From: an uncultured Bacilli bacterium
GTDB taxonomy: Bacteria; Bacillota_I; Bacilli_A; RF39; UBA660
Direction: 5' to 3'
Assembly (NCBI GenBank): GCA_947591565.1
Contig: CANQDH010000001.1
Location: 1 to 26,676, forward strand
Length of the DNA stretch: 26,676 nt
Shown: one piece after another, positions 21,418-23,574 of the stretch
Layout: each line of letters opens with the position of its first letter
How positions within the stretch are numbered: position 1 is the stretch's first letter
Made by a program: the position numbers and the translations under genes
The notes under the pieces: model-generated
The model's database searches: none
What the model was told of the DNA's origin: nothing
What the model saw: the letters and a program-made list of their open reading frames with translations, nothing else

Positions 21418-21446
21418 ATTTTAGCACTTTTTTATAAATTATGCAA
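21418..21446 (-). promoter_or_regulatory. Dedicated sigmaA promoter of the precursor gene
   Basis: TTGCAT, N17, TAAAAT with TG extension (TG-c-TAAAAT), overlapping the YcaO stop codon. Confidence 0.7.
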
Positions 21447-23574
21447 AATAATGAGGAATTTCCCTACATTGTTTACTTAATTTAATGTTTTTCAATGCAG
21501 GATGAAGATAATAATCTCTTTGGTATCCAAAACTTATTGGTACTAATTTTTTGCTAATGGCCCTTACAACTTTTATAAAATCATCTTGAGATTTTGATAA
21601 ATCGACATATACTACTTCTAGAGCTTTTTCAACTTGTTCTAAATCATTCACTTCATTATATTTTATATCTATATACTCGTCATTATCATAAAGCCAAGAA
21701 AGTTTTTGGGCATTTTCATAAAAATGAAAATATTGTCCATGATCTAGAGGGGTCTTCACATTATCAATTATTGGGGCTTTTGAAATAGGATTTTCTTTGG
21801 CCAGTAATAAATTATATTCAGCTTCTTGAAAACTCTTTAATATTGCATCATCAATACTATCAAATGAAGCAGCTGCACCACTTACAAAGCAAGGATATTC
21901 TTTACCAACTATTACTACTAAAAACACTGGTATAAATTTGGAATTTAATCTTAAAATATGAACTTGTCTTTCATTTTTTTTCCAAAAGTTTATTCTATTA
22001 TTTATGTGGTTAGAATAATATTTTGGATGCACATGTTTTGGTGATTCTTGTTTATACCACGATAGCATTATGGCATCTCTTTCGATCAATTCTGAAAGAG
22101 CTCTTTTTTTAGCCTCAGTATAATCAGTATATGCAGCAATTCCAGATGAATCACTTAAGAATAATTTGTTTTTTTTATTATGACCATAAAAAACAAAATC
22201 AGTAGGAATGTAATAAGTACCTGTCATATCTTTTGTCCACTCTATAGCAATATTCTTATCATACTGTAGTAAATTAAATTTTTCCCGTTGCTTGCAAGAT
22301 AGTGGAGCTATCTCATCTGGCATATAAAAATATTTTAAATTATTGGGAACACCAATATAATCAATTTTAACCACACTAGAGCGATATCTTTCATATGCTT
22401 CAATTATTGCTTTACTAACAGCTTCATTATAAGAAGCCCCTGTAGCCCCTGCTATTCTTTTGCTATCCATTCCATATTTTGCCCATGCTCCATAAAATGA
22501 AGTAGTAGAACTATCCAAATTATTAACCCCAAAATTCTTAACTACTTTATTTTCACCAACATATTTATTGGCAAGTTTGCTCAATAAATCCGAATATTTA
22601 AAAGTATCAGTAGCCGAAGCATAACCAATTGCTATCGCTAAAATTGGAGCCACATTATCTTCTTTTATATCCAACTCTTTAGCTAAAGGAATATCTAAAA
22701 TTCCTCCAAGTTCACAGCTAGATAACCCTATTTCTTCACAATATAAAGATATGTTTTGGGCTACTTGACCAGTTTCTATTAAAGTTAATCGATATCCCCG
22801 ATTAGAATATTTATATCCTTGTCTATCTAAATCAGCGGCAATAACAATTTGAATTGGCGAATTAAATGCTAATAATTCATCATTAAAGCAATATTTTAAT
22901 TGTTCCAAATCTATTTTGTCATTATACAAAATTAAATTGTCATTTTCACAATCATATTCGTAATACCCTGCTTTAAAATCTTTCTGATCAGTTGTTACTA
23001 TACAATAAATTTTTAAAGGAAATAAGGCACCTCCACTAGGGGTAGCATGTCTTTTTAAAGAATATGCATAATTGCATATATTACCTAATTGATTAATAGT
23101 GAGCTGGCGCGTAGAAGAAAAATTTCTACAAGATCTACGATTTAACTGGAGTTGATAAAGTTTTGAATTTTTATCAAATTTATAATAAATTTTTTCACCA
23201 TTTTTTATTTTTTTTCTCTTACTTTTTTTATGTTTTTCTACTTCTTCTTCATTTAATAAACGAAAATATTTTGGTGGATAATTAGTAATATAGTGAAAAT
23301 GTTTATATTGTTTTCTTGAATCACTAATTAAATTCATTTCATCTAATTCTATTAAAATTTCTTTAACAACATCCTCATCAAGTTTCGTTATCTTTATTAT
23401 TTCATTTAATGTCCTATGTCCATCACACCCTGATAGTATATTCCATAATGTTGAAACAATTTCACCATCAATATCAAATTGTTTATCTGGATGAAAAAAT
23501 CTAATGCCATTATTGTATGGAACCGCTGGAACTACTAAAATCGGCTTATAATCTTCCCAATTTATAACTATCAC
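21439..23574 (-). CDS. RRE + SagB-type FMN dehydrogenase + YcaO cyclodehydratase fusion
   Basis: aa ~1-88 PqqD-like (LWNILSGCDGHRTLNEII). aa ~135-318 RRSCRNF, TPSGGALFP, YSNRGYR, ETGQVAQN. aa ~330-711 AIIEAYERY, SSGIAA, ELIERD, C-terminal PHYFA. Confidence 0.9.
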   Translation of the reverse strand: MIVINWEDYKPILVVPAVPYNNGIRFFHPDKQFDIDGEIVSTLWNILSGCDGHRTLNEIIKITKLDEDVVKEILIELDEMNLISDSRKQYKHFHYITNYPPKYFRLLNEEEVEKHKKSKRKKIKNGEKIYYKFDKNSKLYQLQLNRRSCRNFSSTRQLTINQLGNICNYAYSLKRHATPSGGALFPLKIYCIVTTDQKDFKAGYYEYDCENDNLILYNDKIDLEQLKYCFNDELLAFNSPIQIVIAADLDRQGYKYSNRGYRLTLIETGQVAQNISLYCEEIGLSSCELGGILDIPLAKELDIKEDNVAPILAIAIGYASATDTFKYSDLLSKLANKYVGENKVVKNFGVNNLDSSTTSFYGAWAKYGMDSKRIAGATGASYNEAVSKAIIEAYERYRSSVVKIDYIGVPNNLKYFYMPDEIAPLSCKQREKFNLLQYDKNIAIEWTKDMTGTYYIPTDFVFYGHNKKNKLFLSDSSGIAAYTDYTEAKKRALSELIERDAIMLSWYKQESPKHVHPKYYSNHINNRINFWKKNERQVHILRLNSKFIPVFLVVIVGKEYPCFVSGAAASFDSIDDAILKSFQEAEYNLLLAKENPISKAPIIDNVKTPLDHGQYFHFYENAQKLSWLYDNDEYIDIKYNEVNDLEQVEKALEVVYVDLSKSQDDFIKVVRAISKKLVPISFGYQRDYYLHPALKNIKLSKQCREIPHYFA

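Follow-up and report, generated by a model that had tools for sequence, protein, structure and literature searches.

A predicted single-chain azole synthetase with the domain order RRE–SagB–YcaO in an uncultured Bacilli bacterium

Contig CANQDH010000001.1 from an uncultured Bacilli bacterium (lineage RF39, UBA660; assembly GCA_947591565.1) was analyzed over 26,676 nucleotides (the window) and encodes a 711-residue protein that carries a RiPP recognition element (RRE), a SagB/McbC-type dehydrogenase dependent on flavin mononucleotide (FMN), and a YcaO cyclodehydratase in one chain. We put the probability at roughly 70% that this protein, called the maturase here, is a three-domain, single-chain azole synthetase of the linear azol(in)e-containing peptide (LAP) type, also known as the thiazole/oxazole-modified microcin (TOMM) type. 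The three domains are identifiable and their motifs are conserved, no C protein accompanies them, and a precursor gene is paired with the fusion in a conserved manner. The support for a maturase function is good, if not decisive.

In the proposed mechanism, the N-terminal RRE would dock the short leader (LxxKxVxY) of a 35-residue peptide encoded downstream. The C-terminal YcaO domain would use ATP and Mg to cyclodehydrate the core cysteines, and possibly Thr as well, to thiazolines, which the central SagB/McbC-type FMN domain would then oxidize to thiazoles. With the E1-like scaffold of the canonical BCD complex missing, the leader-binding job of the C protein would fall to the RRE on the dehydrogenase half. 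The enzyme probably acts as a homodimer, because the solved relatives of both catalytic domains form dimers.

Domain organization of the maturase

The open reading frame (ORF) at 21439–23574 on the minus strand comprises 711 codons with no internal stop, exactly as an earlier note on this DNA had placed it. An AGGAG sequence lies just 1 nucleotide before the GTG codon at 23574, and translation may in fact begin downstream of it, by up to about three codons. The chain is divided as follows.

23284..23553, minus strand: RRE, a predicted PqqD-like winged-helix leader-recognition domain, residues ~8–97 (AlphaFold2, Foldseek, VIA-align)
23185..23283, minus strand: helical linker between RRE and dehydrogenase, residues ~98–130 (secondary structure, pLDDT 63–83; no family match)
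22615..23184, minus strand: SagB/McbC-type FMN-dependent azoline dehydrogenase, residues ~131–320 (PF00881, TIGR03605, phmmer to McbC 6gos_C, Foldseek)
21442..22452, minus strand: YcaO cyclodehydratase, residues ~375–711, ending in PHYFA (PF02624; sequence and fold matches to LynD, TruD, MusD, MJ1094, and McbD)

The model of the full-length maturase is confident as one body (711 residues, pLDDT 92.5, pTM 0.89). A Foldseek search with this model returned LynD and TruD as the best matches (E 1e-19), followed by MusD, BmdC, archaeal YcaOs, McbC, ThcOx, and McbD. The order of the domains is RRE, oxidase, YcaO, and the oxidase occupies the position that is held by the E1-like remnant in LynD and TruD. 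The earlier note had proposed that one chain combines a leader-recognition fold, an FMN dehydrogenase, and a YcaO domain. Pfam, NCBIfam, fold comparison, and motif conservation agree on this composition, and a Pfam/TIGRFAM scan matched Nitroreductase, YcaO, and SagB TIGR03605.

The dehydrogenase is recognized by Pfam as Nitroreductase (PF00881, residues 145–318, E 1.2e-17), and it scores 94.5 bits against the NCBIfam SagB model TIGR03605, for which the cut-off is 78.4. Structural matches of this part include BmdC, McbC, and ThcOx. In the phmmer alignment to McbC (6gos_C), K255-Y256 of the maturase correspond to K201-Y202 of McbC, which we take to be the catalytic Lys-Tyr pair described for the azoline dehydrogenases McbC and BcerB. 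Across 64 family members, Y256 never varies and the conservation of K255 is at least 90%; the RxSxR motif at residues 146–150 is conserved as well.

The YcaO domain matches PF02624 at residues 378–673 (E 1.5e-28, 100.5 bits with a cut-off of 25.7) over profile positions 3–320 of 325, and it aligns with LynD, TruD, MusD, and the Methanocaldococcus jannaschii YcaO. The ATP-binding motifs that had been quoted earlier are all present, namely EAYERY (392–397), SSGIAA (476–481), and ELIERD (495–500). E392, E395, R396, S477, G478, E495, E498, and R499 are invariant in the same 64 members, and P707, H708, and F710 of the C-terminal PHYFA are at least 90% conserved.

The identity of the N-terminal domain came from fold comparison alone, sequence searches being negative. 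For residues 1–135, Pfam gave nothing above threshold, with only weak winged helix-turn-helix matches (E 0.005–0.06), and a profile search of the Protein Data Bank (PDB) sequences found no significant match. An AlphaFold2 model built from 63 homologues (pLDDT 88.8) predicts strands at 17–20, 23–27, and 32–35 and helices at 39–47, 56–63, and 67–79, which is the three-strand, three-helix winged helix of an RRE. Foldseek placed the PbtF RRE (8t19) first (E 8e-4); further matches are TruD, LynD, McbB, TigE, MccB, PqqD, TbiB1, and ThcOx. Pairwise comparison with VIA-align (root mean square deviation 2.3–3.0 across 81–87 residues) gave Z scores of 9.5 for the peptide-clamp (N-)domain of MccB, 9.2 for the PbtF RRE, 8.9 for TruD, 8.6 for TigE, 8.3 for LynD, 7.6 for ThcOx, and 7.3 for PqqD, with TbiB1 also falling in the range of 7.3–9.5. 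Subunits of GATOR1, which are unrelated winged-helix domains, likewise reach Z scores of about 8–9, so the fold by itself is no proof of leader binding. Most of the structural match list is nevertheless made up of RiPP leader-binding domains, and by its predicted fold the domain is an RRE, as had been suggested from the sequence.

The precursor peptide and partner proteins

The putative substrate is encoded on the same strand as the maturase.

21288..21395, minus strand: 35-codon precursor gene with a GGAGGAGG ribosome-binding site; short leader (LxxKxVxY) and Cys/Gly core with CVTGGGGC

The gene starts 43 bases downstream of the maturase, and its ribosome-binding site is strong. The peptide contains four cysteines plus a run of Gly; three of the core cysteines are invariant and one is variable. 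The five closest loci have the same gene in the same place, with a core that, starting at the first invariant Cys, hardly varies throughout. When the 45 loci with a near full-length fusion were examined, a Cys/Gly-rich short ORF was present within about 1 kb of the fusion in 36 of them; in two of the other nine, the contig stops just upstream of the maturase, where the Saccharibacteria precursors sit. The Saccharibacteria have a longer Gly/Cys-rich ORF before the fusion, which resembles microcin B17. Within the first ~20 residues, 17 precursors from both clades, and thus two phyla, have the motif LxxKxxxY in common, with an invariant Tyr and a Leu that is at least 90% conserved. Such a motif is what would be expected of a leader that is read by a conserved RRE.

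The complex of enzyme and precursor was also modeled. The prediction scored 0.52, whereas the best control scored 0.00; across the runs, contact agreement was at least 42% and the pLDDT of the partner at least 44. Of 80 solved complexes, 58 reach the mark applied to such predictions, as do 2 of 110 mismatched pairs; scores of 0.60 or below comprise 7 of the 80 solved complexes as well as both of the mismatches that passed. The modeling lends the pairing weak backing.

A separate E1-like partner had been predicted to be absent. TIGR03603 and TIGR03882, the models used for C proteins and CD fusions in a TOMM census (PMC4603692), detected no E1-like C protein in the maturase chain, the window, or the genome, an assembly of 0.95 Mb that is 87% complete. 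The prediction was borne out, as neither an E1-like nor an Ocin-ThiF-like partner was found in the window or the genome. The sole ThiF-family match in the genome is an unlinked 230-residue gene on contig 22 that matches TcdA best. In three Saccharibacteria genomes that carry the fusion, nothing scored above the cut-off for the ThiF family or matched TIGR03603. Gene content therefore suggests that the maturase may be active without a partner. TfuA, the partner of thioamide-forming YcaOs, was sought in the bacterium's own genome and not found.

Family scans of the ORFs in the window revealed no peptidase or transporter family, in line with what the earlier note had stated, and five small ORFs had no Pfam match. 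No double-Gly cleavage site is obvious where the leader of the precursor in the window ends. The one C39-ABC exporter of the genome is encoded on a different contig, where a C39-peptidase domain (C35:5008-5409) lies within a 735-codon open frame that probably encodes a bacteriocin-type ABC exporter. A predicted Zn protease of the DUF2268 family is found beside the fusion in 33 Saccharibacteria loci (L017:7654-8301 on the minus strand and 32 others), directly downstream and on the opposite strand. This protein is a candidate leader peptidase; a search for DUF2268 in the bacterium's own genome was negative. The description of the locus as a two-gene system is accordingly right in that maturase and precursor form the conserved minimum, but the Saccharibacteria relatives hold this third neighbor.

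Family distribution and the valS cassette

A word-indexed search yielded 248 relatives; the few that are named derive from Bacilli and Saccharibacteria metagenome-assembled genomes (MAGs). The best 120 of the 248 span 564–734 residues; 119 of these 120 have both Pfam domains, and one has YcaO only. In a species-level genome collection, 128 relatives were found. Full-length fusions occur in small-genome Bacilli or "Tenericutes" MAGs, in about 35 Saccharibacteria (one of them a cultured strain of Nanosyncoccus), in other Patescibacteria, and in MAGs of Lachnospiraceae/Roseburia (Clostridia). A profile of the N-domain retrieved 299 clusters at 50% identity, mostly of 700–750 residues. Judging from these sequence matches, the RRE-SagB-YcaO layout defines a large and widespread family. 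Matches from tblastn in Haloarcula, Nocardiopsis, Streptomyces, and Acidobacteria were rejected as fusions, the SagB and YcaO ORFs being adjacent but separate.

Some of the N-domain clusters consist of proteins of 330–370 residues with the RRE and the SagB domain only. One such split relative (L092:2190-5999) encodes a 540-residue SagD-type YcaO, a C39-like peptidase, and a 332-residue RRE-SagB protein. Its YcaO has an N-terminal extension of ~165 residues and scores 239.5 bits, above the SagD cut-off. A 36-codon ORF beside this locus was rejected as a precursor for having no Cys, and no precursor was identified at the split locus. The fusion probably arose from split clusters without a C protein, as in the LAP layout of the candidate phyla radiation (CPR).

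In the window, the maturase and its precursor are embedded between genes for valine-tRNA ligases (ValRS).

26062..26243, minus strand: T-box leader upstream of the type-2 ValRS (Rfam RF00230, 119.1 bits; gathering score 93)
26047-26077: terminator-like hairpin at the T-box
23587..26025, minus strand: type-2 (PRK13208-type) valine-tRNA ligase immediately upstream of the maturase (NF009687, 999 bits; exact start uncertain)
19468..21171, minus strand: 5'-truncated native type-1 valS directly downstream of the precursor gene (profile positions ~270–859)

Along the minus strand, the order is T-box, type-2 ValRS, maturase, precursor, and a type-1 valS without the initial ~270 codons; 12 nucleotides separate the ValRS stop from the maturase start. 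No 5' piece of type-1 valS is present in the assembly, relatives of the same genus have intact type-1 valS frames of 856–875 residues that are 75–78% identical, and the fusion is absent from the 40 relatives searched, three of the same genus among them. For these reasons, we read the T-box, ValRS, maturase, and precursor (19468–26243 with valS included) as an acquired cassette that took the place of the 5' end of the native valS.

ValRS does not belong to the conserved maturase module, because it adjoins the fusion in the Bacilli clade only (six loci) and because in the closest relatives a RelA/SpoT-type gene that is lacking in the window stands between ValRS and maturase. In one of these (L005:5550-6989, plus strand), this gene codes for 479 residues with HD, RelA_SpoT, and TGS domains and ends 12 nucleotides before the maturase. 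We considered the idea that ValRS provides self-resistance in this lineage; the pattern of neighbors neither proves nor excludes it.

We would also entertain, as a tentative extension that is less likely than not, that the self-sufficient azole synthetase, with the oxidase in the structural place of the E1 scaffold, spreads as a tiny cassette among reduced-genome, host-associated bacteria such as Saccharibacteria and small Bacilli. Here the cassette, traveling with a T-box-controlled ValRS, would have destroyed the resident valS and would hence be hard to lose.

Three other ORFs of the window were recorded. A 501-codon ORF at 4031–5536 on the plus strand has collagen triple-helix repeats (PF01391, E 3e-32) and a GC content of ~45%, compared with ~28% for the genome. 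At 26285–26674 on the minus strand, an ORF cut off by the end of the contig contains a Gly-rich domain like the ALK/LTK glycine-rich family (PF12810, E 2.5e-18). A putative amidoligase family protein of 317 residues (PF12224) is encoded at 10502–11455 on the minus strand, between the genes for enolase and a penicillin-binding protein.

Alternative readings and relation to known systems

Several observations weigh against the assignment as an azole synthetase. No biochemical data on any member of the family were found in the literature, and no leader peptidase or exporter is linked to the maturase in its own genome, whose 87% completeness leaves room for an unlinked partner. The complex prediction gives the pairing weak backing. 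On the NCBIfam SagD model TIGR03604, the YcaO part scores 97.5 bits, well under the cut-off of 219.25. Azoline-forming YcaOs reportedly end in a Pro-rich PxPxP, to which the PHYFA tail had been likened; the tail is in place and conserved, but the full pattern is not kept, two of the three prolines being replaced. Finally, clusters for cyanobactins, LAPs, and thiopeptides contain dehydrogenases with a fused RRE that is considered possibly vestigial (PMC7470986).

The last point leads to the alternative that survives best, although we hold it to be improbable: the N-terminal RRE would be vestigial, as has been suggested for oxidases of the ThcOx type, and the YcaO domain would recognize its substrate by the core or by way of an unlinked partner. 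Besides the suggestion of the RRE-Finder authors, the presence of ThcOx and BmdC among the fold matches and the weak backing from the modeled complex would fit this. Yet the N-domain is the only RRE-like element in the locus, it is well conserved (46% mean column identity in the family alignment, with several invariant positions), the precursor leaders hold a common motif across two phyla, and the three Saccharibacteria carriers searched have no ThiF-family gene.

It is less likely still that the YcaO domain does something other than form azolines in the peptide, for example introduce thioamides or amidines or cleave it with the use of ATP. The best single-sequence PDB match of this part is the thioamide-forming MJ1094, and MusD is matched too, which together with the SagD score and the lack of a strict PxPxP would speak for such a role. 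The domain is, however, fused to an azoline-type dehydrogenase with the conserved Lys-Tyr pair, Cys and Gly abound in the cores as they do in substrates of the microcin B17 type, the genome yielded no TfuA, and the YcaO of the split relative passes the SagD cut-off. Finally, it is very unlikely that the substrate is a protein, such as the neighboring ValRS or one of the ribosome, and not the short ORF: some YcaOs do act on proteins (McrA and uL16; PMC13063428) and the maturase gene lies among translation genes (ValRS, lepA), but the short Cys/Gly ORF accompanies the fusion across phyla and has a strong ribosome-binding site, whereas ValRS does so in the Bacilli clade only.

An azole synthetase of this kind has counterparts for each of its parts. 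The McbBCD system of Escherichia coli, which matures McbA to microcin B17, likewise pairs a YcaO with an FMN dehydrogenase that has the same Lys-Tyr pair, docks the leader on an RRE, and acts on a Gly/Cys-rich core, to which the Saccharibacteria precursors are especially similar. It consists, however, of three proteins in an octamer with the RRE on the E1-like McbB, whereas the maturase is one chain with the RRE before the dehydrogenase and no E1-like domain. The fused CD proteins of the cyanobactins (LynD, TruD, and PatD) also run from an RRE at the N-terminus to a YcaO at the C-terminus of a single chain; in these the middle is the E1-like remnant and the oxidase is separate, whereas the middle of the maturase is the FMN oxidase. 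ThcOx (cyanobactin) and BmdC (bacillamide, from a nonribosomal peptide synthetase pathway) share the succession of an N-terminal RRE-like domain and a nitroreductase-fold azoline oxidase, and the profile match to BmdC spans maturase residues 60–304. Unlike the maturase, both lack a YcaO domain, and leader binding is not thought to be a function of their RREs.

To our knowledge, stand-alone YcaOs that are independent of E1 come with neither an RRE of their own nor a fused oxidase. Those of bottromycin and trifolitoxin work without a C protein (Cox et al. 2015, PMC4603692), a feature in which the maturase resembles them. Sharrar et al. (2020, PMC7298704) describe LAP clusters of the CPR in which a YcaO adjoins a nitroreductase, with a peptidase and a short precursor alongside. 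Their carriers also have small genomes, and the split relative resembles their layout; their genes are separate and Saccharibacteria are not among the carriers listed, in contrast to the present family, in which both enzymes are fused. The chemistry and all three folds are thus already known, and CD fusions are common. What is new is the arrangement: the oxidase carries the RRE and is itself joined to the YcaO, and an E1-like domain is absent. No description of an RRE-SagB-YcaO (B-D) fusion was found in the literature, the 2017 Chem Rev review of YcaO enzymes not being covered.

The installation of azoles normally takes two or three assembling proteins, one of which is an E1-like scaffold of debated role. 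If the proposed function is true, the single chain would be the smallest known azole-forming unit and convenient for peptide engineering, and it would test whether the E1-like domain is dispensable once the RRE is tethered in another way. Saccharibacteria and other bacteria that are ultra-small or have reduced genomes commonly carry this family. Because these carriers hold very few recognizable natural-product genes, the peptide made by the maturase may matter for their dealings with hosts or competitors.

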